NCBI GenBank assembly: GCA_023389195.1
Contig: JAEWET010000020.1
Span: 33,059-97,058 of the forward strand
Reading direction: 5' to 3'
DNA length: 64,000 bases
From: Pseudomonadota bacterium
GTDB lineage: Bacteria; Pseudomonadota; Alphaproteobacteria; Rhizobiales; Rhizobiaceae
Part shown: positions 23,029 to 52,107 of the stretch, one piece after another
Layout: every line of letters starts with the position of its first letter
Numbering within the stretch: position 1 is the first letter of the stretch
Notes under the pieces: model-generated
The model's database searches: none
What the model was told of the DNA's origin: nothing
Seen by the model: the letters and a program-made list of their open reading frames with translations, nothing else
Position numbers and translations under genes: made by a program

Positions 23029-23311
23029 GGGGGTCTTGTCTGACGTAAAAGCATGGATTGAAAGGCGGCGACAATTGAGGCGGCTTTTCCAGGATGATGC
23101 CCGCCAACTGGTCGAGCGGGATCCCGTGACAGCCTACTATGATGCGCAACGGGCCGCAGCTCGGGCCCGTTTTGCAGGTGACGGCCGCTCCTTTTTGCAT
23201 TGGGCGAAAGTGGCGGCCGAGGTCGCGCGGATCAGCAATGCGCCGATGGACTACGAAATCGTTAAAAGAATGGTCGACGAAGAGGAAAGGCGGACGAAGA
23301 GGGGAAAGTAG
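23027..23311 (+). CDS. hypothetical small protein
   Basis: 94 aa. Its ATG overlaps the divergent thermonuclease ATG (CATG). Confidence 0.4.
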   Translation: MGVLSDVKAWIERRRQLRRLFQDDARQLVERDPVTAYYDAQRAAARARFAGDGRSFLHWAKVAAEVARISNAPMDYEIVKRMVDEEERRTKRGK

Positions 23312-23378
23312 TGGGTGGCCGTGCCACTGGAGCGACTGGGGGAAGTGGTACAGATGATCAACAATCGCGGGCGAATCA

Positions 23379-26375: not shown

Positions 26376-26389
26376 TGGCGGAGAGGGAG
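26376..26389. repeat. distal att repeat: displaced copy of the tRNA-Ser 3' end
   Basis: TGGCGGAGAGGGAG is identical to 52018-52031, the 3'-terminal 14 nt of the tRNA-Ser gene in reverse complement. It lies 424 nt upstream of the integrase ATG. Confidence 0.55.
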
Positions 26390-26812
26390 ACCGCCATATC
26401 TATTTCCGTAGGTGTTCGTGGGTGACTTTCAGTGTGGTGTAAGTCTCGGACTTTAAACGACTTTTCATCGGTTCCGTTCGCGCGCGTTCGTGGGTGTCTC
26501 TTGCAATCCGCAAAAATAGGGTGGCTCATAAGGTGGCTGACGGGCACCAGCCACCTTATTCGCTGCCCTGGATACCAGAATGACCGCCTTCGACCTCTCG
26601 CAAGACACGACCTCTGCTGACATTCCAATCCAGCTATCGGCTCCGTGCTGGGACTTGTTGACCGCCATGGTTCAACAACTGGTGGCACAGGCCACATTCC
26701 CCGCGCACATGATCACCAACGCCTGGGTGTGTGAGCACAGCCACCAACCAACCCTTCTGCTGACGATCGGTCGTCAGCCGCCCGCAACGATGCATTGACG
26801 GGGAGGAAAGAC

Positions 26813-28487: not shown

Positions 28488-28715
28488 ATGCCCAACCACG
28501 CCGCGACAAACGCCTGTGAAAATTTGTTGTACGACAAACTCGTCCCGTGCCGGGACGTAGAAGCCGTGACAGGCTTAAGCAAGGCGACAATTTACCGGCT
28601 GATGGCAGCCAAGAGCTTCCCAAAACCGGCGCGGGTTGGAAGCGCTTCGCGCTGGTCTTGGATCGCTGTCCAGAATTGGATTGCGGATCAGTTGCGCGCG
28701 GAAGCCGCCGAGTAA
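28488..28715 (+). CDS. AlpA-family transcriptional regulator / excisionase-like
   Basis: 75 aa from the internal ATG. It contains CRDVEAVTGLSKATIYRLMAAKSFPKPARVGSASRWSWIAVQNWI. Confidence 0.75.
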   Translation: MPNHAATNACENLLYDKLVPCRDVEAVTGLSKATIYRLMAAKSFPKPARVGSASRWSWIAVQNWIADQLRAEAAE

Positions 28716-28727: not shown

Positions 28728-28949
28728 TTGAACCTCACACACGACAACCAGAACACCCCTTTTCGCGACCGCCTGATCCGTTGCCCGGAGGTCAAGAACC
28801 TTACGGGCCTGGGCCGCACAACCATCTACAAGATGATGGGCACGGGGGCTTTCCCCAAGTCGGTCAACGTGGGCCGTGCGGCTCTTTGGTCCGAAGGCGA
28901 GGTGTTCGCCTGGATTGAAGCGCAAAAATTGCGGGCGCGTGCTGCCTGA
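28728..28949 (+). CDS. AlpA-family transcriptional regulator (second paralogue)
   Basis: 73 aa containing CPEVKNLTGLGRTTIYKMMGTGAFPKSVNVGRAALWSEGEVFAWI. A hairpin at 28958-28979 follows. Confidence 0.75.
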   Translation: MNLTHDNQNTPFRDRLIRCPEVKNLTGLGRTTIYKMMGTGAFPKSVNVGRAALWSEGEVFAWIEAQKLRARAA

Positions 28950-33255: not shown

Positions 33256-33505
33256 GATGCTCAGAGACTAGAACGAATGGGCCCGTAGCTTCATCTTCCT
33301 AATTCGAAGGCCGGAAACGATTGTGGGTCAAGGCGTAGGCGATCGGTCGCTGAAGGCCACCGCTCTGTCCAGGCGGTCCATCAATGAGCCCGCGCACTGA
33401 CTCTCCCATTTAAGATTGAGCCCACGTCAGTTCTCGGATAGCTTGATCAAACGTCAAGTAACTGGGCTCGCATAGTTACAAGACGGATCATGTCGCTGGG
33501 AGTGC

Positions 33506-34387
33506 ATGGTGGAAACAGAGAAGGCAGACCTTCGGTGGGGAGTCGAGCAGCGGCTCGAATTCATCGACTTCCGCCTGTTTTGGGAGGGGCATGTGAATCG
33601 AGTCGATCTGATGAGCACGTTCGGGGTGTCGGTGAACCAGGCGTCCACCGACCTGAACCGCTATATCGGAATGGCGCCGGAGAACATGCAGTACGACAAG
33701 AGCGCGCGTGCGTATGTCCGCGGCGCAGCATTCGCGCCGCTTTACCTGAAGCCGGACGCCAGTCGATATCTCGCGCAACTTAGGTCCGTCGCCGATGGCA
33801 TCCTAGACAGGGCTGACGGATGGATCGGTCAGTTTCCATCCTCTGACGCCGCACCGACGCCCATCCGCGGCGTCAACGCCAAGACACTGCGTTCGGTGAT
33901 CGCCGCGATCCGACGATCCGAAGCGATTGAGGTCAAGTACCAGTCGCTCTCCCGGCCCGAGCCTCGCTGGAGGTGGATCGCGCCACACGCCTTGGGATTC
34001 GACGGGTTCCGCTGGCACACGCGAGCCTTCTGCCTCATCGACCAGAGCTTCAAGGACTTCCTGCTTTCGCGGATCATCGAGACTCGCGGTACCAAGTTGA
34101 GCGAGGTGGGGCCTGACGCGGACACAGACTGGAACGAGCAGGTAACCCTGGAAATAGGGCCGCATCCGGAGCTTTCCGCCACACAGCAGAAAGTGATCGC
34201 CCTCGATTACGGTATGCGCAGCGGCAGGGCCAAGGTCCTCGTCCGGAAGGCTCTTCTTTCCTACGCGCTCAAACGGCTCGGTCTGGACACGGATCCCGCT
34301 GGGCGGCGTCCCCAGGATCAACAGATCGTTCTCATCAACCGCTCTCAGGTACATGCCGCGAGCACGTCTACGAGCAGTACGGATTGA
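33506..34387 (+). CDS. WYL-domain transcriptional regulator (BrxR/CapW-like)
   Basis: 293 aa. The N-terminal wHTH is VSVNQASTDLNRYI. The WYL core is RWRWIAPHALGFDGFRWHTRAFC. It lies immediately upstream of the cassette, and its stop at 34385-34387 is followed by the next ATG at 34389. Confidence 0.8.
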   Translation: MVETEKADLRWGVEQRLEFIDFRLFWEGHVNRVDLMSTFGVSVNQASTDLNRYIGMAPENMQYDKSARAYVRGAAFAPLYLKPDASRYLAQLRSVADGILDRADGWIGQFPSSDAAPTPIRGVNAKTLRSVIAAIRRSEAIEVKYQSLSRPEPRWRWIAPHALGFDGFRWHTRAFCLIDQSFKDFLLSRIIETRGTKLSEVGPDADTDWNEQVTLEIGPHPELSATQQKVIALDYGMRSGRAKVLVRKALLSYALKRLGLDTDPAGRRPQDQQIVLINRSQVHAASTSTSSTD

Positions 34388-34388
34388 T

Positions 34389-37300
34389 ATGGCGCACCTC
34401 GAAGAACTCCTTCCCAACACGTCAGTCCGCGGGATCTTGCCCGATGGATTGGTGACTGTCGTCAATGTCCAGTGGTACGGCTCCGAGGCTCTTGAGCTCA
34501 CGTACAAGGACGCGCGTGGAAAAGTTGCGAACGAGTTGCTCTACCGGCACGACGAAACGCGGCTGGATGTCGTCGAAGAGGGGCGGCCGTGGAGCCTTGA
34601 CGGTGATGGGCGTCTGTTCAGGCTTGTGTCCGAAGCTCATCGGATAAGGCTCGCCCATCTGTTTGACCCGGTACTCGCGGTTCACACCTCGCTTGTTGAA
34701 CCTCTGCCTCATCAGATCACTGCGGTCTATGAGGAAATGTTGCCTCGTCAGCCACTGCGCTTTCTGTTGGCGGATGACCCCGGTGCGGGCAAGACCATCA
34801 TGGCCGGCCTTCTCATCAAGGAACTTATCGCTAGGGGCGACCTACAACGTTGCTTGGTTGTCTGCCCGGGTAGCCTGGCCGAACAGTGGCAAGATGAGCT
34901 GTACCGGCGCTTTCAGCTTCCGTTCGAAATCATGACGAACGACAAACTCGAAGCGGCACGAACAGGAAACTGGTTTCTTGAGAACAATCTCGTCATAGCA
35001 CGGCTCGACAAGCTCAGCCGAAACGAAGACGTCCAAGCAAAACTCGAGGTCCCGGATGCAAGGTGGGACCTCGTGGTGTGCGACGAAGCTCATAAGATGT
35101 CCGCGAGCTTTTTCGGCGGCGAGATCAAATACACGAAACGATATCAGCTCGGCCAGAAGCTATCTGCACTGACCCGTCACTTCCTCTTGATGACCGCCAC
35201 TCCCCACAACGGTAAGGAGGCAGACTTCCAGCTGTTCATGGCCCTTATTGACGGGGATCGTTTCGAGGGACGATTTCGCGACGGCGTGCATGCAAGCGAC
35301 GTCTCTGACCTGATGCGGCGGATGGTCAAGGAAAACCTGCTGAAGTTCGATGCCACCCCATTGTTTCCACCCCGAGTAGCGAAGACTGTTCCGTACCGAC
35401 TCTCGGACAAGGAGGCCGAACTCTACAAGGCTGTGACGGCCTATGTGCGCGAGGAATTCAACCGCGCAGAAGCGCTGCAGAACGACAAGCGTGCTGGAAC
35501 CGTGGGCTTTGCTCTCACAATTCTGCAGCGTCGGCTCGCCTCGTCGCCAGAAGCAATTTATCAGTCGCTGCGCCGCCGTCGTGAGCGCCTCGAAGGCCGC
35601 CTTCGCGAACTTGAGCTCCTTCAGCGGGGGGCAGCGGTTCATGCTCTCACAAGCTTCGGGCCCTCGTTCGATGCCGAGGATCTGGACGACCTCGAAGACG
35701 CACCTGACCAAGAGATCGAAGACACTGAGGATCAGATTCTCGATCAAGCCACTGCTGCTCGCACCATCGACGAGCTCAAGGCAGAGATCTCAACGCTCGT
35801 AGACCTCGAACAACTCGCACTTGGTGTTCGCCGGGGCGGCCAAGACAAAAAATGGCGCGAGTTGGCCGAGCTCCTTACCGAAATATTTAAGCCAGCTGCC
35901 GTGGCCAATCAGCTTGCTGAAGACCCCGCTGATTATGATGCGGCGACTCCAATTCCAAAATCATCACCGCATCAGAAACTCGTAATCTTTACCGAGCATC
36001 GCGATACCCTCTCGTACCTGGTCAACCGCGTTAGCACGCTTCTTGGCCAAAGAGAGGCTGTGGTCACCATTCATGGCGGCGTGGGCCGAGAAGACCGCTT
36101 GAAGGCCCAAGAAGCATTTCGCCACGACCCGGAAGTGAAGGTGCTCATCGCCACCGACGCAGCCGGTGAAGGCATCAATCTTCAGCGCGCCCATCTGATG
36201 GTCAACTACGATCTGCCGTGGAATCCGAACCGCCTCGAACAACGGTTCGGCCGAATTCACCGCATTGGGCAGACGGAGGTCTGTTTTCTCTGGAACCTCG
36301 TCGCTGATGAGACGCGGGAGGGCGATGTCTACCGAACCCTGCTCGAAAAACTTGAGAGGGCGCGCGAGGCTTTAGGAGGTCAGGTTTTTGATGTCCTCGG
36401 CAAGGTAGTTTTTGACGGCAAGCCACTCCGAGAGCTGCTTATCGAGGCCGTACGTTTTGGCGAACGCCCCGACATCAAAGAACACCTTACGAAGGTGGTG
36501 GAGGGTGCTCTCGATCACGAAAAGCTTCGTTCGCTGCTGGAAGATCGCGTTCTTGCGCCCGAATCCATGGACGCGAGCCGCGTGCACCGGGTGCGAGAGG
36601 AGATGGAGCGGGCTGACGCACGTCGCCTCCAGCCTCATTACATCGAGTCTTTCTTCTTAGAGGCGTTTAAGGAACTAGGTGGGGCTGCGCGTCAACGCGA
36701 GCATCGACGCTATGAAGCGACTCGTGTCCCCGCACCGATCCGCAATCGGGACCGCCTGATCGGACTAGGTGAGCCGGTACTCTCCCGATACGAGCGCATC
36801 GTCTTTGACAAAGCTCTGATAGCTCCACAAGGACAGCCACTCGCCGCCTTCGTGTGTCCAGGCCATCCGTTACTCGACGCTACGCTTGGTCTAACGCTTG
36901 AGCGACACCGTGACCTGATGCGGCGCGGGGCCATACTTATCGACGAACGTGACGGTGGTGAAAGCCCGAGGATGCTGTTCTATTTAGAGCACGCGATCCA
37001 GGACGGCAGTGAAACCCGCTCTGGTGAACGTCGTGTCGTTTCGAAGCGAATGCTTTATGTGGAGATGGATGTCGAAAGCAATGCGCGCCACTTGAACTAT
37101 GCGCCCTACCTAGACTACCGGCCGCTTCAGGAGGGCGAACCCACTTCTGCCGAAATCCTCCAGCGGCCAGAGTGTTCGTGGCTCAGTCGCGACCTTGAAG
37201 CAAAGGCGCAGGCGCATGCAATCGGAAGCGTGGTTCCCGAGCATGTACGCGAAGTGTCGGGACGGCGTCTGGAACTTATCGCCAAGACGGAAGCCGCGGT

Positions 37301-37973
37301 GAAGGAGCGACTGACGAAGGAAATAAGCTATTGGGATCATCGGGCTGAGGAGCTCAAACTCCAAGAGCAGTCAGGCAAGGCCAACGCTCGCCTCAACTCG
37401 AACGAGGCACGACGCCGGGCAGACCAGTTGCAGGCACGCCTTGAGAAGAGAACTGCGGAACTGAAGTTGGAGGCGAAGCTGTCGCCGCTTCCGCCGGTCG
37501 TCATGGGCGGGATGCTCGTTGTTCCTCTTGGTCTGCTCGCGAAAATGGCTCCTGATCGAGTTCCGAAGCCCAAGGTCTCGGCAGATACACAGGCTGCAGC
37601 AGCTCGTGCTCGGCAGATAGTCATGGAGGTCGAGCGTCAGCTCGGCTTTGACCCTACCGATCGAGAATTTGAAAAACTTGGCTACGACATTGAAAGTCGG
37701 ATGGAGGGCACGGGCCGCCTGCGCTTCATTGAGGTCAAAGGACGCGCGCAGGATGCAGCCACGATCACAGTGACCAAGAATGAGGTCCTGTATTCGCTAA
37801 ATAAGCCTGACGACTTCATTCTAGCGATCGTCGAGTTCAAGGGTGATCTGCATAACGGTGATCACCAAGTTCACTACTTGCGACGTCCGTTCCAGCGGGA
37901 GCCTGATTTTGGCGTCACCAGTATCAACTATGACTTTGCTGAGCTTCTTGCCCGTGCGGAGCCGCCCAAATGA
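34389..37973 (+). CDS. SNF2-family helicase with a C-terminal PD-(D/E)XK (DUF3883-like) nuclease domain
   Basis: Motif I is LLADDPGAGKTIMAG, motif II is VVCDEAHKMS, motif V is LIATDAAGEGINLQ and motif VI is QRFGRIHRIGQ. The C-terminus GYDIES...RFIEVKGRAQDAATITVTKNEV carries D...E.K. Confidence 0.9.
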   Translation: MAHLEELLPNTSVRGILPDGLVTVVNVQWYGSEALELTYKDARGKVANELLYRHDETRLDVVEEGRPWSLDGDGRLFRLVSEAHRIRLAHLFDPVLAVHTSLVEPLPHQITAVYEEMLPRQPLRFLLADDPGAGKTIMAGLLIKELIARGDLQRCLVVCPGSLAEQWQDELYRRFQLPFEIMTNDKLEAARTGNWFLENNLVIARLDKLSRNEDVQAKLEVPDARWDLVVCDEAHKMSASFFGGEIKYTKRYQLGQKLSALTRHFLLMTATPHNGKEADFQLFMALIDGDRFEGRFRDGVHASDVSDLMRRMVKENLLKFDATPLFPPRVAKTVPYRLSDKEAELYKAVTAYVREEFNRAEALQNDKRAGTVGFALTILQRRLASSPEAIYQSLRRRRERLEGRLRELELLQRGAAVHALTSFGPSFDAEDLDDLEDAPDQEIEDTEDQILDQATAARTIDELKAEISTLVDLEQLALGVRRGGQDKKWRELAELLTEIFKPAAVANQLAEDPADYDAATPIPKSSPHQKLVIFTEHRDTLSYLVNRVSTLLGQREAVVTIHGGVGREDRLKAQEAFRHDPEVKVLIATDAAGEGINLQRAHLMVNYDLPWNPNRLEQRFGRIHRIGQTEVCFLWNLVADETREGDVYRTLLEKLERAREALGGQVFDVLGKVVFDGKPLRELLIEAVRFGERPDIKEHLTKVVEGALDHEKLRSLLEDRVLAPESMDASRVHRVREEMERADARRLQPHYIESFFLEAFKELGGAARQREHRRYEATRVPAPIRNRDRLIGLGEPVLSRYERIVFDKALIAPQGQPLAAFVCPGHPLLDATLGLTLERHRDLMRRGAILIDERDGGESPRMLFYLEHAIQDGSETRSGERRVVSKRMLYVEMDVESNARHLNYAPYLDYRPLQEGEPTSAEILQRPECSWLSRDLEAKAQAHAIGSVVPEHVREVSGRRLELIAKTEAAVKERLTKEISYWDHRAEELKLQEQSGKANARLNSNEARRRADQLQARLEKRTAELKLEAKLSPLPPVVMGGMLVVPLGLLAKMAPDRVPKPKVSADTQAAAARARQIVMEVERQLGFDPTDREFEKLGYDIESRMEGTGRLRFIEVKGRAQDAATITVTKNEVLYSLNKPDDFILAIVEFKGDLHNGDHQVHYLRRPFQREPDFGVTSINYDFAELLARAEPPK

Positions 37974-40900
37974 AAGGTAGCCCAGCATACTTCGAAGCCA
38001 TTCGTCAGAAGGCTTCGAAGCGATGGGACCAGTTGGAGAAGGACCCGGAGTTGGCCGGCCCGTGGCACCAGCTTTTCAAGCAGGTCCAAAGCCCGCGACA
38101 TATCCTGTCGGAGCTTCTTCAGAACGCCGACGATGCTGGCGCGACAGCTGCTGCTGTTTGGGTTGAAGATGGGGTTTTCATTTTCGAACATGACGGAGAG
38201 GATTTTGCAGAGGAGCATTTTGCATCGCTATGCCGCTTCGGATACTCCAACAAGCGCGCGCTCCACACCATCGGTTTCCGAGGAATAGGCTTTAAGAGCA
38301 CGTTCAGTCTTGGAGACCAGGTCGAACTGCACACTCCCTCCCTCGGCGTGGCGTTTCATCGTCGACGATTCACGGAGCCGGTCTGGCTGTCGGCGGCGAC
38401 GGGAACCGACGGGAACACGAGGATCCGCGTCGAGATCAGCGATCTTCACAGGCAGCGAGAGGTCGAAAAGAACCTCTCTGAGTGGATCAAGAGCCCTGTT
38501 TCCCTACTATTCTTCAAGAACATCCGCCGCATGCGGATCGGTGATCACGAGGTCCATTGGGGGAGTCTCGGTCCAGGTCCCGTCCCCGATAGCGAATGGA
38601 TGGCTCTCTACGAGAAGGAAGATGAGGCATACCTGCTGATCAGGTCGGAGCCCGAGGCATTCCCGGAGGAGGCGCTCGCCGAGATCCGGCAGGAGAGGAT
38701 GCTCGGATCCGAAGAAGGCGCAGAGTTTCCTCCGTGCAAGGTGGAAGTAGTTCTCGGTGCAGAGGGGCGCCTCTATGTCGTCCTTCCCACAGGTGTGGAG
38801 ACGGAGCTGCCTTTTGCCTGCAACGCGCCATTCATTCAGGATCCTGCCCGTCTAAAAATCAAAGACCCTGAGACATCCCCAACGAACCGTTGGCTCCTCG
38901 AGCGGGCAGGCAAACTTGCTGCGTCGGCCATGCTTCACTGGCTTGCCGATGGAAGTGCGGCGCTCGTCGAGCGCGCTCGGGCCTACGGCCTGCTCCCGGA
39001 CGTTGACAGGGAAGACAGCTCACTGGAAGGCGTCTGTGGCACAGTCGTAGAGGAGGCCTTCGCCGAGGCGATTGACAATAAAGAGCTTCTGCTCACCGAG
39101 GGTGGAAAGCTCGTCCCGGAGAAGCAAAGCGTCATCGTCCCCCGAGCAGTGCTCAATGTCTGGCCGGCGGCGCAGGCGGCAGCGCTACTGGACGCGGAGG
39201 GCAGACCGGCGCTCTGCCACAATGTCGACGCGCTCGATAAAAAGAAGCTGCTTCGATGGGGGGTTGTTGAGGAAATCGACAAGCAGACGCTTCTCGGCAT
39301 CCTGCAGGAAAAGCATCTCCCGAAGCCAGAGACGTGGCGCCAGCTTCTGATCTTGTGGGCTTATGTAGCACCCGAGATTACCGGCTATCGCCATTATGTG
39401 AACGCTGAGGATGTCAAGATCGTGCCCGCTCAGGGCAAGGACGTCCTGTATGCCGCGAGCGAAGTCGTCCGTCTGGGCGAGAAGAAGCTCCTACAATCGG
39501 ACGACGACTGGGAGTTTCTTGCGAAATATTTGATCGTCGTGAATCAGAAATGGCCGCGTTTTCTCGCAGAGCAGCGCCGCAGCACATCCGAGAAATCGGG
39601 CGTGTTTCTGAAGGACGATGTAGAGGGAGCCTACGCCGTTCTGGAGGAGATAGGCCTCGAACACACGAGCGACGTGAACAAGGTGATCGAGCAGGTCGCC
39701 ACCGAATTTTTCCGTCAGGATGGAATTGCTCTCTCCGGTTGCGTCCAGCTCGCACAGATCGCGGCGAAACTCGGGGCAAGCGTTGGTGATGGATTTCGAT
39801 ATGCCACGCGGGATCGACACCTAAGGTCGATCGACAAGGGCATCCTTCTTGATGATGACGGAAAGCTACAGGATCTGCTCCCAGAGAATCTGAACCAGAC
39901 ACAGCTCCTCCATTCAGACTATACCTCGAGCTATAAATCTTGCTCACGTGAAGACTGGCTACAATGGATTTCCTCGGGCAGGTCGGGCTTGAGGACATTT
40001 GTGCCCCTTGTCGAGGCACGAACTTTCTCTGGTCGCCGAAGAGGCCTCGATGATGAATTGACTAAGCGCGCGTTCGCTGGACGGGTCGAGCCACGATACA
40101 AGGACCCATGGTTTTACATCTATGACTGGGATTTCGATTCGGCTGTTTGGGTCCACTGGCAGGCTAATGCCAAAGAGGACCCATCATTGTGGGCAGCGGT
40201 TATTGAGCGCCTTCTGCAAGAGAAGTCGGACTACTGGTCGCAAAAAACGTCCGCCCGGATCGTTGAGGAGGCATCGAACGGTCATCAGCGGACCGTTGTG
40301 CGTCGCGATCTGACACCGTCGTGGGCACTGCGACTTGGCGCTCTTCCCTGTCTTCCCGACACTCGCGGCTTTCACAGAAGGCCTGACGATCTCCTTCGGC
40401 GCACGCCAGAGACTGAGTCCCTGATGGACGTTGAACCGTTCGTCCACGGCCTTCTTGATCGTGAGACGACGCGGCCTCTTCTCGATCTCCTTGGCGTCCG
40501 AAGCACCCCAACCGGTCCTGACCGGCTTCTCGATTGCCTTCGAGCCTTGGGGAAGGCGGACAAGCCGCCTGTCCATGAGGTCGAGAAATGGTATCGCCGC
40601 CTCGATCAGATGTTGGAAACCTGCGCGACGGCCGACTTTCAGAAGATCCGACAGGCGCTACGCACGGAAAAACTAATCTTCACGCAGGACGGTGTCTGGG
40701 CGACGGCACCGTCGGTATTCCTCTCGTCCGACAATGACGATGTCCCTGACGCCGCAGTGGTCAGAGACTCTGTCCGCGATCTGACGCTCTGGCGCAAGAT
40801 CGGCGTGGCCGAACGCCCCACCGCCGATCTTGCGATCGAATGGCTGAAAAGCCTCGCATCCGGAGAAGGTCTTTCCCAGGAAGACGCGCGCCGAGTTCGC

Positions 40901-42199: not shown

Positions 42200-44999
42200 G
42201 AAGAAACTCATCGAGGCGGCGCTCCCGCTGCCGGAGATCAACGACGCTTCTGCCTACGACAAGATGCCGGGAATTGGTCCGCATCCCAAGGGTATCCATC
42301 ACTGGTGGGCGCGCCTGCCATTGCCGACCGCGCGGGCGATCCTCTTCGCTTCGGTCGTGGACGACCCGGAATCTCATCCCGAAAAATGGCCAACAGAGGA
42401 AGAGCAGAACGCCGAACGCGAGCGCCTGTTCGACATCCTGCGCCTGATGATGAGCAAAAAGCTGCACGAAGCGCCTGAGATTTATGCCGAGGCGCGCCTC
42501 GAGATGCTGAAACATTGCGACGGCGAGCTACCCACCGTTTTCGATCCCTTCTCTGGAGGCGGATCAATCCCTCTCGAGGCAAATCGCATGGGGTTCGAGG
42601 CACATGCGGGCGACCTCAATCCCGTCGCTGTGCTATTGAACAAGTGTAATCTCGAAATCGCGCCACGATGGGTGAAATACCCGCCCGCAAATCCTGTGGA
42701 TCGGAAGCGGATCGGCGGTGGCGAAGCATGGCAGGGCACTGACGGCATTGCTGCCGATATCCGACACTACGGCGCACAGATAAAAAAGGATGCCGAGAAG
42801 AGACTCGCGCAACTTTACCCCCAAGCCAAACTAAATGATGCGCTCGGAGGCAGGAAGGCTGATGTGATTGCTTGGATCTGGGCGCGCACGGTCGCAAGCC
42901 CCAACCCAGCCTTTAGGGGAAAGCATGTACCGCTGGTAAATTCGTTCTGGCTTTCAAACAAAAATGGAAACGTGGCATGGCTGTCCCCTCAAGTAGACCG
43001 CCAGAAGGGGACATTTAATTTCCAGGTACGCACTGACAAGCCTGATGATGCGACAACAATAGCCTCCGGGACCAAGGCAAAGAAAGGAGGGTTCCGGTGT
43101 TTGCTCAGCGACGATCCAATACCTTTCGAGTACATTCGGGAAGAAGGAAAGCAAGGTCGACTGGGTGAGATACTGCTGACCACAATTGCCGACACCGGAC
43201 GAGGACGCATTTATCTGCCGCCTGATGACAGCCAGATACAAGCCGCTGCGGGCGCCGACCCGACGGATTATCCTGACACAGATCTTCCTGCTGAAGCCCT
43301 CGGCTTTCGAATTCAGAACTATGGTGTGCGACACCATTGGCAGATGTTTACCCCACGCCAGCTTGAAGCCACTGTCGTGCTGAGCGACCTGATCCGAGCG
43401 TCTTGCGGCAAAATACTTGATGACGCGCGGGACTCCGGAATGTCATCCGATGACGCTGGCCTATACGCGAGCCACATTACAACGTTCCTAGCACTTTCTC
43501 TCGATCGACTTGCATCGTTCAACAACAGATTTTCAAAGTGGAACGGCAATCAAACAGTATTCATGTTTACGCGTCAGGCGATCCCCATGCTTTGGGACTT
43601 CGCTGAAGCGAACGTATTGGGCAAACGATCTGTATGCTGGGAGACATCAGTAAATATTTGCGCCGATGCTGTTCAGACTATTTCACCTAGAGACGGAATT
43701 GACGCAAGCGCTAGACAACTCGACGCCGCTACCGGTGCAAATGGCTTGAAGAATCTGCTCGTTAGCACTGATCCACCATATTACGACAACATCGGATATG
43801 CAGCTCTATCTGACTTTTTCTATGTATGGTTGCGCCGAACCGTCGGGGACATCCATAAGCAAATTTTTGACACTGTCCTCGTGCCGAAGGGACCAGAGCT
43901 GATCGCGTCGGCGGAGGTCTTCGATGGAGACAAATCAAAAGCCAAAGAGCATTTTGAGTCTGGATTTAAGCGCGCATTTTCTGCTTTGAAGAACAAAATG
44001 AACCCGGAGTTCCCACTGACCGTTTACTATGCCTTCAAGCAAGATGACGAAGGCGCTGGACAAGTAGACGAAGAGGAAGACGACGGTGTCGATCTCACGA
44101 CGGGATGGGAGACGCTGCTCGCCTCGTTGGTGGAGAGCGGCTTCCAGATCACAGCAACTTGGCCTGTTCGAGCTTCATTCAGTTGGCGGGTGAGAGCACT
44201 GCGCTCAAACGCGCTGGCCTCCTACATCGTTCTGGCCTGCCGTCCACGTGCAGATGATGCGCCTCAGATCGGGAGTAATCAGTTCCGAAACGAGCTGAAA
44301 CGCACCCTACCACCAGCATTGCGCCATCTACAGCAGGGCAACATAGCGCCGGTGGACTTTGCGCAGGCCGCGATTGGGCCAGGCATGGCAGTCTATTCAC
44401 GCTACAGCCGGATTATCGACTCGTCCGGCAGGCCGATGACCGTGCGGACCGCCCTCGGCATCATCAACCAGGCGCTCACCGAGGTGCTGAGCGAGCTGGA
44501 AGACGACTTTGACGCGGATACCCGCTGGGCGATCTCCTGGTTCGAGCAGAATGGCTTCGGCGAAGGTGACTACGGCGACGCGGAGCTGCTGAGCAAGGCG
44601 AAGGTCACCTCGGTCACCGGTCTCAGGCAGGCCGGAGTGGTCGACTCTAAGAGCGGCAAGGTGCGCCTGCTTGCACCTGCCGAATTGCCCGCCGATTGGG
44701 ATCCGACGAGCGACAAGCGGCCGACGGTGTGGGAGATGACGCATCATCTGCTGCGCCTTTATCATGTCGAAAAGGCTGGTGACGAAGCAACCGCAACTCT
44801 GCTGCGAAAGATCGGGAGCCAGGGGGAGGTCGCACGCGAGCTTGCCTATCGTCTGCACAATATCAGCGAACGCAAGAGGTGGTCGCAGGAAGCGCAGGGC
44901 TACAACGCCCTCGTACTCGGCTGGCCGGAGATCGCGCGGCTTGCCCGTGAAATGCCTGGGACGGCATTGCCGACGCCTTCCCAGGGCACACTCATCTGA
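42183..44999 (+). CDS. DUF1156-type DNA methyltransferase (N6A/N4C class)
   Basis: The N-terminus KKLIEAALPLPEINDASAYDKMPGIGPHPKGIHHWWARLPLPTARA is the DUF1156 signature. Motif I is VFDPFSGGGSIPLEA and motif IV is LVSTDPPYYDNIGY. I prefer the ATG at 42183 over the TTG at 42171. The gene overlaps the GHKL gene end. Confidence 0.9.
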   Translation: MTATHKKKLIEAALPLPEINDASAYDKMPGIGPHPKGIHHWWARLPLPTARAILFASVVDDPESHPEKWPTEEEQNAERERLFDILRLMMSKKLHEAPEIYAEARLEMLKHCDGELPTVFDPFSGGGSIPLEANRMGFEAHAGDLNPVAVLLNKCNLEIAPRWVKYPPANPVDRKRIGGGEAWQGTDGIAADIRHYGAQIKKDAEKRLAQLYPQAKLNDALGGRKADVIAWIWARTVASPNPAFRGKHVPLVNSFWLSNKNGNVAWLSPQVDRQKGTFNFQVRTDKPDDATTIASGTKAKKGGFRCLLSDDPIPFEYIREEGKQGRLGEILLTTIADTGRGRIYLPPDDSQIQAAAGADPTDYPDTDLPAEALGFRIQNYGVRHHWQMFTPRQLEATVVLSDLIRASCGKILDDARDSGMSSDDAGLYASHITTFLALSLDRLASFNNRFSKWNGNQTVFMFTRQAIPMLWDFAEANVLGKRSVCWETSVNICADAVQTISPRDGIDASARQLDAATGANGLKNLLVSTDPPYYDNIGYAALSDFFYVWLRRTVGDIHKQIFDTVLVPKGPELIASAEVFDGDKSKAKEHFESGFKRAFSALKNKMNPEFPLTVYYAFKQDDEGAGQVDEEEDDGVDLTTGWETLLASLVESGFQITATWPVRASFSWRVRALRSNALASYIVLACRPRADDAPQIGSNQFRNELKRTLPPALRHLQQGNIAPVDFAQAAIGPGMAVYSRYSRIIDSSGRPMTVRTALGIINQALTEVLSELEDDFDADTRWAISWFEQNGFGEGDYGDAELLSKAKVTSVTGLRQAGVVDSKSGKVRLLAPAELPADWDPTSDKRPTVWEMTHHLLRLYHVEKAGDEATATLLRKIGSQGEVARELAYRLHNISERKRWSQEAQGYNALVLGWPEIARLAREMPGTALPTPSQGTLI

Positions 45000-45014
45000 C
45001 GGAGGGCATGCGCC

Positions 45015-48000
45015 ATGGCGATCACCAATCACGAACGTGTCGGCAACGCTCTTGACCTGCTCCGCGCCGGTCTCGGGCCCTTCGTCGAGCGAGAGATCAA
45101 GGCGGCTATGAAGGACGGGACCAGTGTACCCGCATTGCAGTCGCTCGCGAGTGATCCGCTGATCAAGGACAAGCCGATCACGGAATGGGACGCTGCTCTG
45201 CTGCTGAAGGTCATGTGGGAATCCTGGAACGAGGTCTTCCGCAAAACACTCGGTCCCGCAGAACGCGGCATCGTTGGTGAGTTGCGAGGCCACAGGAATA
45301 AGTGGGCGCATCAGGAAGCGTTCACCAGCGACGACGCATATCGTGCACTCGACAGCGCCGGTCGGCTTCTCACCGCTGTGTCGGCTCCGCAGTCGCGGGA
45401 TCTGGAACGCATCAAGATGGAACTGTTGCGTGTTCGGTTCGACGAACAGGCGCGCAATGAGAAGCGGAAGGCTGCGGGGACCGCAATCGAGAGTCAGGCG
45501 ACCGGCACGCTGAAGCCGTGGCGTGAAGTTGTCAGCCCCCACCGTGACGTAGCGAGCGGCCGCTATCAGCAGGCGGAATTCGCCGCAGACCTGTGGCAGG
45601 TACACATCGGCGAGGGCGTCGACGAGTACAGAAAGCCGGTGGAGTTCTTCCGCCGGACATTCCTGACTGACAGCCTCCAACAATTGCTGGTGGGTGCGGT
45701 TCGCCGCCTGTCGTCAGACGGCGGCGATCCGGTCATCCAGCTGCAGACCAACTTTGGCGGTGGCAAGACCCACTCGATGCTGGCGCTGTACCATCTGTTC
45801 TCAGGCGCTACGCCAAGCGAGCTACTGGGCGTTGAGGGCGTCGTGAAAGAGGCGGGCATCGGCGACCTGCCTGCGGTCAAGCGAGTGGTTCTTGTCGGGA
45901 ACAAGATCTCGCCGGGGAATCCGGTGAGGAAAGACGATGGGACGATCGTCCATACGCTGTGGGGTGAACTCGCCTGGCAGCTCGGCGGCCGAGCAGCCTA
46001 TGATCGGATTCGAGCCGACGATGAGAAGGCCACCAGCCCCGGTGACGTTCTCCGTGATCTCTTCAACGAGTACGGACCGGCGCTCGTCCTGATTGATGAG
46101 TGGGTGGCCTACGCACGGCAGCTTCATGACCAGAGCGACCTCCCAGCCGGCAGTTTCGAGACCCACTTTACTTTCGCACAGGCGCTGACGGAGTCGGCCA
46201 AGCTGGCGAAGCACTGCCTTCTGGTCGTCAGTCTACCCGCATCAGATACGGCCGGATCACCCCATACCCAAGCCGACGATGTCGAGGTCGGCGGCCGACG
46301 CGGGCGCGAAGCGCTGGATCGCCTCCGCAACGCCATTGGTCGTGTCGAATCATCATGGCGTCCGGCCAGTGCAGAAGAAGGCTTCGAGATCGTACGCAGA
46401 CGCCTATTCGAGCCCCTCATCGAGCAGTCGCAGTTTGTTGCCCGCGATACCGTTGCGAAAGCTTATTTCGACCTCTATCGAAGCCAGCATCAGGAGTTCC
46501 CGCCAGAATGCCGGGACTCCGAGTACGAAGGGCGCCTGAAGGCTGCTTATCCCATCCACCCCGAGGTGTTCGATCGCTTGTACACGGAGTGGTCGACGCT
46601 GGTGAAATTCCAGCGGACCCGCGGCGTCCTTCGTCTCATGGCGGCAGTGATCCACAGCCTCTGGGAAAAAGGCGATCGCAACCCGTTGATCCAGCCGGCC
46701 AACATCCCGATTGACGATCCGCGCGTTCAGTTCGAGCTGACCCGCTATCTGTCCGACAACTGGACACCGATCATCGAGAAGGACGTGGACGGACCGAATT
46801 CGCTGCCACTCCGGATCGACGGTGAGGTGCCCAATCTCGGGAAGTTCTCGGCGTGTCGCCGGATCGCACGCACCATCTATCTGGGCTCGGCGCCGGGATC
46901 GACGGTTTCGAACCGGGGGATTGAGGACCGGAGAATTAAGCTCGGATGCGTAATGCCGTCCGAGTCGCCCGCGATCTTCGGTGACGCTCTGCGCCGCCTC
47001 AGCGGTGCCGCGACCTACCTTTACCAGGACGGTGCGCGGTACTGGTACTCGACGCAGCCAACTGTCACGAAGCTGGCCGAGGACCGGACGGAACAATTGA
47101 AGTCAGATCCTGATCGGATCAATCGAGAACTTGATACGCGGCTGCGCGCTGATCTACGGAAGCAGGGTGACTTTGCGAGGATCCATGCGCTTCCGCAGTC
47201 CGGGCAAGACGTGCCAGACGACTTTGATGCCCGGCTCGTCGTTTTAGGAGCGGACCATCCGCATAGCCGCGACACAAACAGCGCCGCGGAGGCGGCCGCC
47301 AAGGCCATTCTTGAAACACGCGGTAGCGCGCCGCGCCTTTACAGGAACACGCTCGTTTTTCTCGCGGCTGACAAGACGCGGCTTCAGGACCTTGATGAAT
47401 CTATCCGCCGGTATCTTGCTTGGCAGTCGGTCCTCGACGAGAAGGACGAGCTGGACCTGACGCCGCACCAGGTGCGGCAAGCGGAAACCCAGAAGGCAAG
47501 CGCGGACAGCGCAGCCAATGCTCGTCTGCCTGAGGCATTCCAATGGCTGCTTGTGCCTCAACAGCCGACGCCGCAGTCTCCGATTGAGTGGCAAAGTTTC
47601 CGCCTGAGCGGGCAAGAGCCATTGGCCGCCCGGGCTAGCCGTAAGCTCAAGAACGACGAGCTCTTAGTGACTGGCCTCGCGGCTACTCGGCTTCGTCTCG
47701 AGCTCGATCAAGTTCCGCTTTGGCGTGGGGATCACGTCCTGGTCAAACAGCTGGTCGAGGATTTTGCGCGATACCTCTACCTCCCGCGCCTTCGCGATAC
47801 GGCAATTCTGCTCGACGCGATCCGTGAGGGCTTGGGACTGTTGACGTGGGGCAAGGATTCATTTGCCTACGCAGAGAGCTTTGATGAAGCGGCGTCCAGA
47901 TACCGAGGGCTCCGCTGTGGGCAGATGGTCTCCCTCTCGCCGGATAATCCTCTAGGTCTGCTTGTGAAGCCCGAACCGGCCGTCAAGCAGCAGGATGATG

Positions 48001-48356
48001 AGGCGCCCCGCCCTGCAAGTGGCGGCATGCCTACCGGAACAATCTCCGTGAATCCCGTTGGTGATTCACCGACGGCGACAGGAGGGGGCACCACAACTGC
48101 GGAACTGCCGAAACAGGGGCAACCTAAACGCTTCCATGGCTCCATCACCCTGGATCCAGCACGCGTGGGACGAGATGCGAGCCGCGTGGCAGATGAGGTA
48201 ATCTCTCACCTATCGGGATTGATGGGCACGAATGTCCGTGTAACACTTGAAATCGAAGCGGAAATTCCCGATGGAGCCCCGGAAAACGTCGTCCGGACCG
48301 TCACCGAGAACAGCCGGACGCTGAAGTTCGACAATCAGGGCTTTGAACTGGAGTGA
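45015..48356 (+). CDS. Swt1-like HEPN domain fused to a DUF499 P-loop ATPase
   Basis: The N-terminal HEPN R-x4-H motif is ELRGHRNKWAHQ. The Walker A is TNFGGGKTHSMLAL and the Walker B is LVLIDEWVAY. 1113 aa. Confidence 0.85.
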   Translation: MAITNHERVGNALDLLRAGLGPFVEREIKAAMKDGTSVPALQSLASDPLIKDKPITEWDAALLLKVMWESWNEVFRKTLGPAERGIVGELRGHRNKWAHQEAFTSDDAYRALDSAGRLLTAVSAPQSRDLERIKMELLRVRFDEQARNEKRKAAGTAIESQATGTLKPWREVVSPHRDVASGRYQQAEFAADLWQVHIGEGVDEYRKPVEFFRRTFLTDSLQQLLVGAVRRLSSDGGDPVIQLQTNFGGGKTHSMLALYHLFSGATPSELLGVEGVVKEAGIGDLPAVKRVVLVGNKISPGNPVRKDDGTIVHTLWGELAWQLGGRAAYDRIRADDEKATSPGDVLRDLFNEYGPALVLIDEWVAYARQLHDQSDLPAGSFETHFTFAQALTESAKLAKHCLLVVSLPASDTAGSPHTQADDVEVGGRRGREALDRLRNAIGRVESSWRPASAEEGFEIVRRRLFEPLIEQSQFVARDTVAKAYFDLYRSQHQEFPPECRDSEYEGRLKAAYPIHPEVFDRLYTEWSTLVKFQRTRGVLRLMAAVIHSLWEKGDRNPLIQPANIPIDDPRVQFELTRYLSDNWTPIIEKDVDGPNSLPLRIDGEVPNLGKFSACRRIARTIYLGSAPGSTVSNRGIEDRRIKLGCVMPSESPAIFGDALRRLSGAATYLYQDGARYWYSTQPTVTKLAEDRTEQLKSDPDRINRELDTRLRADLRKQGDFARIHALPQSGQDVPDDFDARLVVLGADHPHSRDTNSAAEAAAKAILETRGSAPRLYRNTLVFLAADKTRLQDLDESIRRYLAWQSVLDEKDELDLTPHQVRQAETQKASADSAANARLPEAFQWLLVPQQPTPQSPIEWQSFRLSGQEPLAARASRKLKNDELLVTGLAATRLRLELDQVPLWRGDHVLVKQLVEDFARYLYLPRLRDTAILLDAIREGLGLLTWGKDSFAYAESFDEAASRYRGLRCGQMVSLSPDNPLGLLVKPEPAVKQQDDEAPRPASGGMPTGTISVNPVGDSPTATGGGTTTAELPKQGQPKRFHGSITLDPARVGRDASRVADEVISHLSGLMGTNVRVTLEIEAEIPDGAPENVVRTVTENSRTLKFDNQGFELE

Positions 48357-52017: not shown

Positions 52018-52031
52018 TGGCGGAGAGGGAG
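52018..52031. repeat. tRNA-proximal att repeat (3' end of tRNA-Ser)
   Basis: TGGCGGAGAGGGAG is identical to 26376-26389. Confidence 0.55.
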
Positions 52032-52107
52032 GGATTCGAACCCCCGATGGGCTTGCACCCATGCCGCATTTCGAGTGCGGTGCATTCAACCACTCTGCCA
52101 CCTCTCC
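52018..52107 (-). tRNA. tRNA-Ser (anticodon CGA), class II with a long variable arm, CCA encoded
   Basis: The reverse complement reads GGAGAGGTGGCAGAGTGGTTGAATGCACCGCACTCGAAATGCGGCATGGGTGCAAGCCCATCGGGGGTTCGAATCCCTCCCTCTCCGCCA. The acceptor stem is GGAGAGG/CCTCTCC. The anticodon stem is CCGCA/TGCGG with loop CUCGAAA. The T-loop is TTCGAAT. Confidence 0.9.

Follow-up and report, generated by a model that had tools for sequence, protein, structure and literature searches.

Five open reading frames lie in tandem on the plus strand of the 64,000-nucleotide stretch of DNA that we analyzed (the window), at positions 33506-34387, 34389-37973, 37970-42199, 42183-44999, and 45015-48356. Their Pfam domains are, in order, WYL; SNF2-rel_dom, Helicase_C, and NOV_C; SACS/HATPase_c_3; DUF1156; and HEPN_Swt1 with DUF499. 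The stop codon of the WYL gene (TGA, 34385-34387) is followed by the ATG of hmaA at 34389, and hmaA and the GHKL gene share an ATGA overlap (37970-37973). The hmaB gene begins at ATG 42183, upstream of the GHKL stop codon (TAA, 42197-42199), giving a 17-nt overlap, and a 15-nt gap separates its own stop codon (TGA, 44997-44999) from the ATG of hmaC at 45015. The initial annotation described a single operon-like, restriction-modification (R-M)-like defense cassette with a WYL regulator. Our analysis supports this description, and the five co-oriented genes, all of the junctions, and all of the quoted motifs are present in the sequence. The proposed cassette start at 33458 was wrong, as it reads GTA and is followed by an in-frame TAG at 33473. 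The start codon of the WYL gene is ATG 33506, or GTG 33509 by the gene call of the ENA record. The catalytic motifs of the core genes are intact.

The first gene codes for a 293-aa BrxR-family WYL transcriptional regulator that contains WHD_BrxR, WYL (E = 5e-10), and BrxR_CTD domains and is matched by PADLOC WYL models. Just 5' of this gene, at 33452-33485, lies an inverted repeat, CGTCAAGTAACT-N10-AGTTACAAGACG, that represents a candidate BrxR operator through which BrxR may hold the operon repressed. The repeat core (AACTGG-N8-AGT) is kept in two related loci with the same regulator, L001 and L041; it ends in AGTT in the window and in L001, and in AGTA in L041.

The cassette was also proposed to be cargo of a tRNA-Ser island, which is supported by an integrase gene and a 14-bp repeat of the tRNA 3' end. 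The tRNA-Ser(CGA) gene occupies 52018-52107 on the minus strand and is the island's integration site. The direct repeat TGGCGGAGAGGGAG (26376-26389, plus strand) is identical to the 3' end of this gene and is its sole match of at least 14 nt within the window, making it the putative distal att site. About 400 nt downstream is the gene for a tyrosine integrase with Arm-DNA-bind_3, Phage_int_M, and Phage_integrase domains (26795-28141, plus strand). Two small AlpA-family regulator/excisionase genes, both with PF05930, are found at 28488-28715 and 28728-28949 on the same strand; their calls come from an identical ENA contig (window coordinate = L081 coordinate + 27969). The integrative island is about 25.6 kb long.

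The cassette had been regarded as an unnamed, non-canonical system, but PADLOC matches genes 2, 4, and 5 over their full lengths to HmaA, HmaB, and HmaC. Hma, also called the Type-1 DUF499-centered BREX-related (BR) system, is an R-M-like system that acts against phages and plasmids. The name dates from 2021 (PMC8565338); the HEPN-DUF499 form was noted earlier, in 2013 and 2020 (PMC3710099, PMC7641849), and has been catalogued as a Type-1 BR system in 1370 taxa (PMC12839542). The initial annotation correctly named a core of DUF1156, DUF499, and helicase genes, and its exclusion of BREX, DISARM, and type I-III R-M also stands. Its suggestion that this core is shared with MADS, a different system, was not supported. 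It had further considered that all five genes might belong to one validated system, leaving nothing new. This holds for genes 2, 4, and 5 but not for the GHKL gene, which is absent from the Hma/BR definitions that we found; our search of the accessible literature also gave no description of it. We identify the region as an Hma system under a BrxR (WYL) regulator, in a four-component form that is in the minority. The three core genes are already known.

HmaA (1194 aa, 34389-37973) combines an SNF2 helicase with a C-terminal NOV_C nuclease of the PD-(D/E)XK type, as identified with PADLOC (1676.6 bits, residues 1-1193) and Pfam. Its motifs include GAGKT132, DEAH232, QRFGRIHRIGQ618, GYDI1098, and EVK1115, and NOV_C spans residues 1073-1153 (nt 37605-37847). 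The catalytic residues D1100, E1115, K1117, and E1132 are invariant across 14 homologues and correspond to the residues targeted by mutagenesis in the Halomonas protein (D1084, E1104, K1106, and E1121). The NOV_C domain acts as a nickase, and Halomonas HmaA alone protects an E. coli host against phage T4 (PMC11232893).

HmaB (938 aa, 42183-44999) is a DUF1156 DNA methyltransferase of the N6-adenine type, assigned from Pfam, its motifs, and full-length matches to PADLOC models (952.5 and 936.8 bits). Motif I (FSGGGS123) and motif IV (DPPY530) are separated by approximately 400 aa with a nested target-recognition domain between them. The single test of methylation by a Type-1 HmaB, performed in Halomonas, was negative (PMC11232893). 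HmaC (1113 aa, 45015-48356) joins a Swt1-type HEPN domain (HEPN_Swt1, residues 12-123, E = 1e-33, RNKWAH94) to a DUF499 ORC/Cdc6-like AAA+ ATPase with a Walker A motif at residues 254-259 (GGGKTH); the HmaC model of PADLOC matches residues 165-1111 (1150.8 bits), and both domains were identified with Pfam. The Walker A, Walker B, and RN...H motifs are conserved.

The remaining gene (37970-42199) codes for a 1409-aa Hsp90/sacsin-type GHKL ATPase identified with NCBIfam P_loop_sacsin (75.6 bits) and TmtA models. It belongs to a large family of uniform length that spans 437 species or more, archaea among them. The protein carries ELLQNADDAGAT48, HDGEDF74, and GFRGIGFKS102. Its only PADLOC matches are to TmtA, at residues 40-534 and 747-971, so the GHKL domain is not its sole recognizable part, as had been claimed. 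Residues 40-534 (38087-39571; PDLC03968, 193.6 bits) comprise the GHKL (Bergerat) ATPase and an Hsp90-like middle region and are the best-conserved part of the protein. Conservation of SELLQNADDA, F.H.G.DF, and IGFRG.GFKSTFSLG reaches at least 97% among 38 homologues with mutual identity down to 30%; evolution is fast in the two-thirds of the protein outside the ATPase. An AlphaFold2 model of residues 1-1195 was of moderate quality (pLDDT 70.8, pTM 0.45). Foldseek searches returned Hsp90, TRAP1, and HtpG (E about 1e-6) and matched full-length Hsp90-family dimers. By this comparison the protein is of the Hsp90/sacsin type, and the MORC part of the earlier sacsin/MORC-type assignment was not demonstrable.

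The GHKL protein ends in a domain of about 134 aa (41795-42196; AlphaFold2 pLDDT 81) that lies 3' of an acidic disordered linker and occupies the place of NOV_C in TmtA-like homologues. The best fold matches of this domain were NhoI, Hjc, and D212 (E = 0.03-0.05), with none at E <= 0.001. Comparison with NOV_C by hhalign was negative, and the domain lacks an ExK motif. The predicted structure weakly suggests a PD-(D/E)XK-like fold, perhaps that of a degenerate nuclease. Neither NOV_C nor any other recognizable effector domain was found in the GHKL protein with Pfam and PADLOC models.

We examined the linkage of the GHKL gene in the best-scoring 80 of at least 437 loci, a sample that is biased to close relatives and spans many bacterial phyla and Methanobacteriota. 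Upstream sequence of 300 nt or more was available for 77 loci; hmaA was present in 71 of them and lay immediately upstream of the GHKL gene, in the same orientation, in 67. The GHKL match begins at the last aligned HmaA base in 22 of these 67 loci, the position that an ATGA overlap would give. In 18 loci, the GHKL gene and hmaB are separated by more than 1 kb of open reading frames in the same orientation, and no cargo of this size was found between hmaA and the GHKL gene in the locus set. In ten loci that were scanned, the GHKL-hmaB cargo included GmrSD_N, AAA_21 with DUF3226, AAA with a subtilase, and dynamin-like and E1/E2 proteins. Pairs of HmaA and GHKL genes also occur without HmaB or HmaC, beside housekeeping genes (L060, L072) or other methyltransferases (L037, L044). 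Pairwise distances of the GHKL protein correlated with those of HmaA at r = 0.72, HmaC at 0.63, and HmaB at 0.59; the correlation between HmaA and HmaC, 0.97, was far higher. The GHKL gene is thus tightly linked to hmaA across phyla. Roughly 7-14% of Hma loci carry it (4/53 plasmids with full-length HmaC; 2/16 full-length HmaA loci in IMG/VR), and it is also missing from loci in which HmaA or HmaC resembles that of the window as closely as in loci with the GHKL gene (L082 compared with L083 and L086). Because most Hma loci, including close relatives, do not carry the GHKL gene, it is dispensable for the core mechanism.

The hmaA-hmaB interval has been described as a hotspot for unrelated defense genes (PMC11232893), and adjacency by itself therefore counts for little. 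The GHKL gene could be an autonomous, single-gene, Tiamat-like defense system that inserted into this hotspot and works independently of HmaA, HmaB, and HmaC. Insertions occur in 66.5% of hma loci, with Septu, PARIS, Ppl, and GmrSD-like genes among them (PMC11232893), the only PADLOC matches of the GHKL protein are to a single-gene system, and the gene has been gained and lost among close relatives. We nevertheless consider autonomy unlikely, as the protein has no NOV_C or other effector of its own, unlike TmtA, and the gene occurs almost only beside hmaA, in many cases with the hmaA stop codon overlapping its start. The two genes remain paired in loci that have neither HmaB nor HmaC, and real cargo enters 3' of the GHKL gene rather than 5'. 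Moreover, the homologues that do have their own C-terminal NOV_C (L046 and L069) are the ones for which HmaA was not found in the available sequence, L069 having no upstream flank.

The short distance to hmaB (at most 60 nt between matches in 27 loci, and an overlap in the window) would suit a role in modification or recognition, with the GHKL protein acting as a co-activator of HmaC-loaded HmaB, comparable to MtsB of MANTIS, or as an additional sensor that detects phage DNA or proteins, rather than as a regulator of the HmaA nuclease. The authors of the MANTIS study proposed that the activating role of MtsB may fall to other proteins in other BR systems (10.64898/2026.09.23.753747), and the fast evolution outside the ATPase is sensor-like. 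Such a role is quite improbable, given that the GHKL gene is kept alongside hmaA in loci without HmaB and HmaC, that insertions part it from hmaB but never from hmaA, and that domain fusion ties it to the NOV_C nuclease and not to a methyltransferase. Finally, the location on a mobile island and the capacity of R-M-like modules to be selfish addiction systems would fit a role in addiction to the island or in its maintenance, or else a cassette in decay. We regard a primarily non-defensive cassette as very improbable in view of the five intact reading frames with conserved catalytic motifs, the classical defense genes neighboring related loci, and the protection against phages and plasmids provided by homologous HmaA and the related MANTIS (PMC11232893; 10.64898/2026.09.23.753747).

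We favor the model that the cassette is an Hma/BR system in which the GHKL protein probably serves as an accessory, ATP-driven partner of the HmaA nuclease. Gene linkage, homology to TmtA, the distribution of NOV_C, motif conservation, fold, and distance correlation together point to this putative partnership. The HmaC/HmaB pair is homologous to the AAA+/methyltransferase pair of MANTIS, a Type-2 BR system in which MtsA was found biochemically to load MtsC (10.64898/2026.09.23.753747). By analogy, the AAA+ ATPase HmaC would load and control HmaB, which would methylate adenine bases within short sites of the host genome. HmaB and HmaC would also mark those sites that arrive unmodified on incoming DNA, and HmaA, recruited there, would translocate by its SNF2 motor and nick or cut DNA with NOV_C. 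The HEPN domain of HmaC may provide a back-up RNase. The GHKL protein would bind HmaA and license or restrain its NOV_C nuclease, and it is probably a dimeric clamp closed by ATP, as are Hsp90, MutL, and MORC. MutL offers a model for this interaction through its activation of MutH, a nickase, and its loading of UvrD. The body of the GHKL protein is homologous to TmtA of Tiamat, but the NOV_C nuclease of TmtA is missing and is carried by HmaA instead; TmtA models match both the GHKL body and the NOV_C domain of HmaA. A function that TmtA performs in cis may be supplied in trans by the GHKL protein.

The five co-oriented ORFs of the cassette lie on the forward strand at 33506-34387, 34389-37973, 37970-42199, 42183-44999 and 45015-48356, as read from the window. 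They encode a BrxR-family WYL regulator, HmaA, a 1409-aa GHKL ATPase of the Hsp90/sacsin type, HmaB and HmaC. Direct reading of the sequence bore out every junction described in the initial annotation: a regulator stop codon (TGA, 34385-34387) followed by an ATG at 34389, an ATGA junction between the HmaA and GHKL genes at 37970, a 17-nt overlap of the ATG at 42183 with the TAA at 42197-42199, and a 15-nt gap before the ATG at 45015. The quoted motifs were all found, and domain calls by Pfam agree with them. The proposed cassette start at 33458 has to be moved. This position reads GTA and is followed by an in-frame TAG at 33473, and the regulator therefore starts at ATG 33506 or at GTG 33509, the latter being the start called on the identical ENA contig.

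[quoted passage not shown] Gene 2 matched the PADLOC model for HmaA (PDLC00659, 1676.6 bits, residues 1-1193 against model positions 1-1172 of 1176) and carries SNF2-rel_dom, Helicase_C and NOV_C domains in Pfam. Gene 4 matched the HmaB models PDLC00660 and PDLC00661 over its full length (952.5 and 936.8 bits) and has the FSGGGS and DPPY motifs. Gene 5 matched the HmaC model PDLC00662 over residues 165-1111 (1150.8 bits), keeps its Walker A and Walker B motifs, and bears a Swt1-type HEPN domain as an N-terminal addition (Pfam HEPN_Swt1, E = 1e-33; DUF499, E = 1e-30). The locus holds each element of the PADLOC definition of Hma, namely HmaA with SNF2 and a C-terminal NOV_C, HmaB and HmaC together. 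It also has the hallmarks of a Type-1 BR system: a DUF499 ORC/Cdc6-type AAA+ protein with the optional N-terminal HEPN domain, and a helicase with a PD-(D/E)XK nuclease whose NOV_C E, D and ExK residues are invariant. Type 2 is marked by a DUF3870 protein and a PLD nuclease, and Type 3 by PglZ and an iSTAND protein; Pfam gave no hit to PglZ, PLD or DUF3870, either within the operon or in the genes around it.

Hma was named in 2021 as a three-gene candidate system present in 1,638 loci from 26 phyla (PMC8565338; Payne et al. 2021). The Type-1 BR name comes from a 2026 NAR survey that counted 2,446 taxa, of which 1,370 have the HEPN fusion and 79% the helicase-nuclease fusion (PMC12839542). The same gene neighbourhood had already been noted in 2013 (PMC3710099) and 2020 (PMC7641849). 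HmaA from Halomonas is sufficient to protect E. coli from T4, and this protection requires the SNF2 motifs and the NOV_C nickase residues D1084, E1104, K1106 and E1121 (PMC11232893). These correspond to D1100, E1115, K1117 and E1132 of the window HmaA, which are invariant in 14 homologues. The cassette thus belongs to a named and partly validated family, so its earlier description as a non-canonical system was overstated. We set the GHKL component apart from that verdict. The initial annotation had left novelty to a PADLOC check, which gave a divided answer: genes 2, 4 and 5 are the named HmaA, HmaB and HmaC, and the GHKL protein matches models of TmtA, the single protein of the Tiamat system, in part.

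The first gene has the WHD_BrxR, WYL and BrxR_CTD domains (PF26109, PF13280 and PF26107 in precomputed Pfam annotation), and this three-domain architecture at the head of a defence operon is that of the BrxR family. Just upstream, a repeat search found an inverted repeat at 33452-33485 that is a candidate BrxR operator. Its core, AACTGG-N8-AGT, is kept in both related loci that share the regulator (L001 and L041), ending in AGTT in the window and L001 and in AGTA in L041. A promoter and terminator scan of the operon returned nothing above shuffled expectation.

We characterized the GHKL protein by sequence and fold searches. The one domain recognized by NCBIfam is 'sacsin N-terminal ATP-binding-like' (residues 44-120). 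Pfam searches with four fragments (from residues 301-1200 and 1271-1409) at E <= 1 gave nothing, and a PDB sequence search with the GHKL alignment profile gave only insignificant sacsin matches (E = 0.5-0.7). The protein belongs to a large family. A protein search retrieved 1,651 relatives, the best 120 of which are 1365-1427 aa long, 60-100% identical and 97-100% covering, and a scan of one genome per GTDB species found at least 437 loci. These loci include Pseudomonadota, Planctomycetota, Chloroflexota, Acidobacteriota, Actinomycetota, Bacillota, Verrucomicrobiota, a Synechococcus and Methanobacteriota; the closest to the window is from a Pacificispira sp. MAG. Searching cluster representatives with the family-specific C-terminal third (residues 972-1409) yielded 285 clusters (50% identity) at E <= 1e-30 and 602 at E <= 1e-3. 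Among the best 150 clusters, this region occupies the same position in proteins of ~1390-1450 aa, the exceptions being one 1690-aa protein and apparent fragments.

Most of the conservation falls in the ATPase: the motifs SELLQNADDA, F.H.G.DF and IGFRG.GFKSTFSLG are at least 97% conserved in 38 homologues whose mutual identity falls to 30%. AlphaFold2 models were built for residues 1-1195 (pLDDT 70.8, moderate confidence) and the last 137 residues (pLDDT 81). In Foldseek, the N-terminal 650-700 residues of the predicted model matched full-length Hsp90, TRAP1 and HtpG (E ~1e-6), and MLH1 appeared only at rank 50. Weak resemblance to PD-(D/E)XK-like folds (NhoI, Hjc and D212; E = 0.03-0.05) was all that the C-terminal domain showed, and it has no ExK motif. 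We considered a degenerate NOV_C at this end but could not call it one, as hhalign against the HmaA NOV_C returned a probability of 0.2%.

We surveyed the linkage of the GHKL gene by tblastn of the five window proteins against 80 retrieved loci, the best of at least 437. Upstream sequence of at least 300 nt is available for 77 of these 80 loci. In 67 of the 77, hmaA directly precedes the GHKL gene in the same orientation, and in 71 it is found somewhere in the locus. The GHKL match begins at the last aligned HmaA base in 22 of the 67, as expected for an ATGA overlap. HmaB and HmaC were both found in 43 of the 59 loci with at least 7 kb of downstream sequence. Insertions are unevenly placed. 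The interval between the GHKL gene and hmaB exceeds 1 kb in 18 loci and is filled by co-oriented ORFs that are mostly unrelated between loci, in agreement with an insertion hotspot described for hma (PMC11232893). Ten of the 18 were scanned, and their cargo includes GmrSD_N, AAA_21/AAA_15 with DUF3226, AAA with a subtilase, a dynamin-like protein, ThiF with Prok-E2_B, and DUF6119. Across the surveyed loci, no comparable insertion separates hmaA from the GHKL gene, except in one clade with a 163-aa ORF. The GHKL family acts like a partner dedicated to the HmaA helicase-nuclease.

Individual loci illustrate this variation (coordinates are within each locus). Cargo in the GHKL-hmaB hotspot occupies L020 14172-15976, L024 9310-12884, L031 9965-11677, L054 14838-17168 and L057 16323-18182. 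The 163-aa ORF was read in L009 (9471-9962), where its stop overlaps the GHKL start and it has no Pfam match; L015, L023 and L025 have a gap of similar size (534-545 nt) in the same place. In archaeal versions of the system, this place is reported to be taken by standalone EVE proteins (PMC7641849); an EVE fold could not be confirmed for the L009 ORF. Gene order also varies, with HmaA-HmaB-HmaC-GHKL in L061, L068 and probably L036, and the GHKL gene upstream of HmaA in L021 and L066.

The GHKL gene is far from universal among Hma systems. Plasmid records contain full-length HmaC in 53 cases and the GHKL protein in 4. Sixteen IMG/VR loci have full-length HmaA; 11 of them carry plain HmaA-HmaB-HmaC, and 2 carry the GHKL gene in an organisation nearly identical to that of the window. 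HmaC proteins can be equally close with or without it: one from a Burkholderia plasmid with the GHKL gene is 69% identical to ours, and one from a Meiothermus plasmid lacking it is 68% identical. This patchy presence, with equally close HmaC either way, indicates that the GHKL protein is an accessory that is gained and lost, not a core requirement. The two IMG/VR loci with the GHKL gene, L084 (67.6-kb contig) and L085 (39.5-kb contig), are on contigs that IMG/VR classes as viral and carry the same WYL-HmaA-GHKL-HmaB-HmaC cassette, with HmaA 92-94% identical to that of the window. The stretch covered by the HmaB match in L084 is ~5 kb long (13331-18404) and suggests that DNA has been inserted or rearranged within hmaB or behind it.

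We next related the GHKL protein to Tiamat. The TmtA model PDLC03968 matched GHKL residues 40-534 (193.6 bits) and 747-971 (65.4 bits), the stronger match covering only part of the model. The C-terminal part of the TmtA models instead matched the NOV_C of HmaA, and Pfam found no NOV_C (DUF3883) in the window GHKL protein. The protein therefore resembles Tiamat in its GHKL domain and middle region and lacks the single-polypeptide arrangement of a GHKL body with a C-terminal NOV_C. Two homologues do have their own C-terminal NOV_C: one in L046 (9932-14401; 47% identical over residues 1-1246) and one in L069 (1-4365; 40% identical over residues 44-1206). HmaA was not found in the available sequence of either locus, L069 being without upstream flank; the L046 gene is surrounded by HerA-like, UvrD, PD-(D/E)XK, methyltransferase and ResIII genes. 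Among the best 80 of at least 437 loci the pattern is complementary, with 2 of 2 NOV_C-fused homologues lacking hmaA versus ~71 of 75 others having it. The GHKL body thus has NOV_C either in its own chain or on the product of a neighbouring gene, and this is our main argument that it acts with the HmaA nuclease.

We propose a mechanism for the complete cassette that builds on sequence relationships and on analogy with better-studied systems, and we regard it as a whole as somewhat probable. By homology with MANTIS (Gao_RL, the Type-2 BR system), HmaC would load HmaB so that adenines in host sites are methylated and unmodified sites are recognized. HmaA would serve as a translocating nickase or nuclease. 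The GHKL protein would most likely be a dimeric clamp or matchmaker, closed by ATP, through which the NOV_C nuclease is licensed or held back, a role modelled on MutL with MutH and UvrD and on that proposed by Iyer et al. for restriction-modification (R-M) GHKL ATPases (PMC2292703). The HEPN domain of HmaC may provide a back-up RNase (PMC12839542), and BrxR would be a repressor.

Other readings account for parts of these data. The matches to TmtA and the existence of the insertion hotspot are what might be seen if the GHKL gene were an autonomous Tiamat-like system nested in that hotspot, but the absence of NOV_C from the window protein and its position directly behind hmaA, rather than among the changing cargo before hmaB, point to a partner of HmaA, and we consider autonomy unlikely. 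This reading of the GHKL gene as a random hotspot insertion is kept as a minority one only. Alternatively, the protein could work on the methylation or sensing side. Pairwise distances of the GHKL protein correlate best with those of HmaA (r = 0.72), followed by HmaC (0.63) and HmaB (0.59), all three far below the HmaA-HmaC value of 0.97. There are also HmaA and GHKL pairs without HmaB or HmaC: L037 (58-17121), adjoining an Eco57I-like methyltransferase and a pPIWI_RE (prokaryotic Argonaute-like) module; L044 (6405-15645), beside an HsdM methyltransferase; L060 (6453-14221), with ribonucleotide reductase downstream; and L072 (6330-14170), with methionine synthase downstream. We give the methylation or sensing role a slightly smaller chance than autonomy. 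A role outside defence is very improbable for a cassette whose HmaA has a phage-protective homologue.

The preferred reading of the GHKL protein as a clamp acting on the HmaA nuclease can be extended, more tentatively. The GHKL body and NOV_C could be an ancient two-part effector in which an Hsp90/MutL-like clamp licenses an Hjc-like nickase, with HmaA and the GHKL protein as a self-contained restriction module; this is possible, though we doubt it more than we believe it. An ATP-gated clamp would sense or hold DNA, and the parts would be fused in TmtA and split in HmaA plus GHKL. The split module would plug into varied modification modules: HmaB/HmaC, Eco57I-like, HsdM or none. The plant protein NO VEIN would be another fused form. 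If the two-part effector exists, how Tiamat works and how Hma restriction is regulated are one problem. The split and fused distribution of NOV_C offers a concrete, testable link between the two systems. It also suggests a MutL-like licensing step in some BREX-related systems.

Hma is reported to be among the most widespread candidate defence systems, with an inferred mechanism. A GHKL, Hsp90 or sacsin-like component is absent from the Hma papers and from the BR survey and its text supplements. The EVE and HEPN papers do not mention one either. Three surveys of the system are silent on it, and in the searchable literature (without subscription journals) no paper was found to bring GHKL, sacsin or HATPase together with DUF499, DUF1156 or Hma in this way. 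The same literature yielded no paper on the mechanism of Tiamat. What is known here is the Hma core; what appears to be new, judged from gene content and homology, is a large and uniform GHKL family as partner of HmaA. Annotation pipelines should treat a giant 'sacsin N-terminal ATP-binding-like' ATPase beside hmaA as part of the system and not as an unrelated insertion.

The initial annotation placed the cassette as cargo of a tRNA-Ser island, and this holds: the cassette is bracketed by the tRNA, a 14-nt repeat and an integrase. The tRNA-Ser(CGA) gene lies at 52018-52107 on the minus strand. The 14-nt repeat of its 3' end recurs in the window solely at 26376, ~400 nt upstream of a tyrosine integrase gene (26795-28141, by domain and gene calls) that is followed by two AlpA genes. 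A window search with 26 nt of the tRNA 3' end, allowing up to 3 mismatches, found no longer att repeat and returned only the tRNA itself. From the tRNA and the single repeat beside the integrase we conclude that the cassette is cargo of a ~25.6-kb island. Directly after the integrase and AlpA genes is a 993-aa ORF (29041-32022, forward strand; a gene call on the identical ENA contig) with no Pfam, PADLOC or PDB sequence match; it may serve replication or transfer of the island or be a further defence gene. To the left of the island, a second mobile- or defence-looking stretch (19531-25837) lies in a dip in G+C (0.58). It contains a serine recombinase (19531-20865), an HNH_2 endonuclease (21350-22291) with PADLOC HNH and type II REase matches, and a DUF4238 and SEC-C protein (24566-25837, minus strand).

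We compared the cassette to known systems. It agrees with Hma in its SNF2 and C-terminal NOV_C HmaA, its DUF1156 N6-methyltransferase HmaB with a nested target-recognition domain, its HEPN-fused DUF499 AAA+ HmaC, its identical gene order and its full-length HMM matches. Hma was described with three genes, whereas the cassette adds the GHKL gene, translationally coupled to hmaA, and is headed by a BrxR regulator. That predicted regulator, known here from its sequence, shares the domain architecture, first position in a defence operon and upstream inverted repeat of BrxR regulators, but heads an Hma operon instead of a BREX operon. The cassette is neither BREX nor DISARM, as had been stated: signature proteins of either have no match in it, and the combinations PglZ + BrxC + PglX and DrmA/DUF1998 + DrmB + DrmC are both lacking. 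DrmD and BrxH models match only the SNF2 core of HmaA (360 bits versus an NCBIfam cut-off of 610).

A core shared with the methylation-associated defence system (MADS), suggested earlier, does not hold, because MADS is a different system according to its preprint description. Both are methylation-based, multi-gene and include ATPases. The eight genes of the MADS operon, however, include those for a kinase, a type-I-like methylase and an HsdS-like specificity subunit, and MADS recognizes a bipartite site; it is also marked by mad6-8 signature proteins. Compared by that description, none of its distinguishing genes is in the cassette. None of the five proteins matched a kinase or HsdS in Pfam or PADLOC, and no MADS-named model was among their PADLOC matches. 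MANTIS is closer, having a homologous DUF499 AAA+ protein, a DUF1156-type methyltransferase and a helicase-nuclease effector. It is the only superfamily member with a worked-out mechanism, in which asymmetric 6-bp sites are hemimethylated by a methyltransferase that the DUF499 AAA+ protein loads, and restriction requires the methyltransferase, both ATPases and the helicase-nuclease (10.64898/2026.09.23.753747). Its effector is the PLD nuclease-helicase MtsD, in contrast to SNF2 + NOV_C in the cassette, and it has a small DUF3870 protein (MtsB), no GHKL protein and no HEPN fusion. The Gao_RL models PDLC02189, PDLC02192 and PDLC02193 gave only weak matches to the cassette proteins.

The GHKL protein itself was set beside two groups. 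MORC and paraMORC GHKL ATPases, predicted to belong to R-M operons, have a GHKL + S5 module with motifs specific to each family (Iyer et al. 2008, PMC2292703). Like these and the MutL-MutH-UvrD system, the cassette places a GHKL ATPase alongside a methyltransferase, a superfamily-II helicase and a nickase of the PD-(D/E)XK type, and the proposed role is alike: a matchmaker or clamp, driven by ATP, would license a nuclease on DNA while methylation marks self. The window protein has GHKL motifs I-III; its best folds are Hsp90, TRAP1 and HtpG, with MLH1 lower. It is closest in fold to Hsp90/sacsin, the analogy is one of function and not of membership, and as far as we could tell the protein probably lies outside the described MORC/paraMORC families. 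With Tiamat, the protein shares the GHKL ATPase and middle regions, with TmtA architecture in the L046 and L069 homologues (47% and 40% identical over ~1200 residues). Unlike TmtA, the window protein ends in a 134-aa domain that lacks catalytic residues in place of NOV_C, and the NOV_C nuclease is carried by the neighbouring HmaA.
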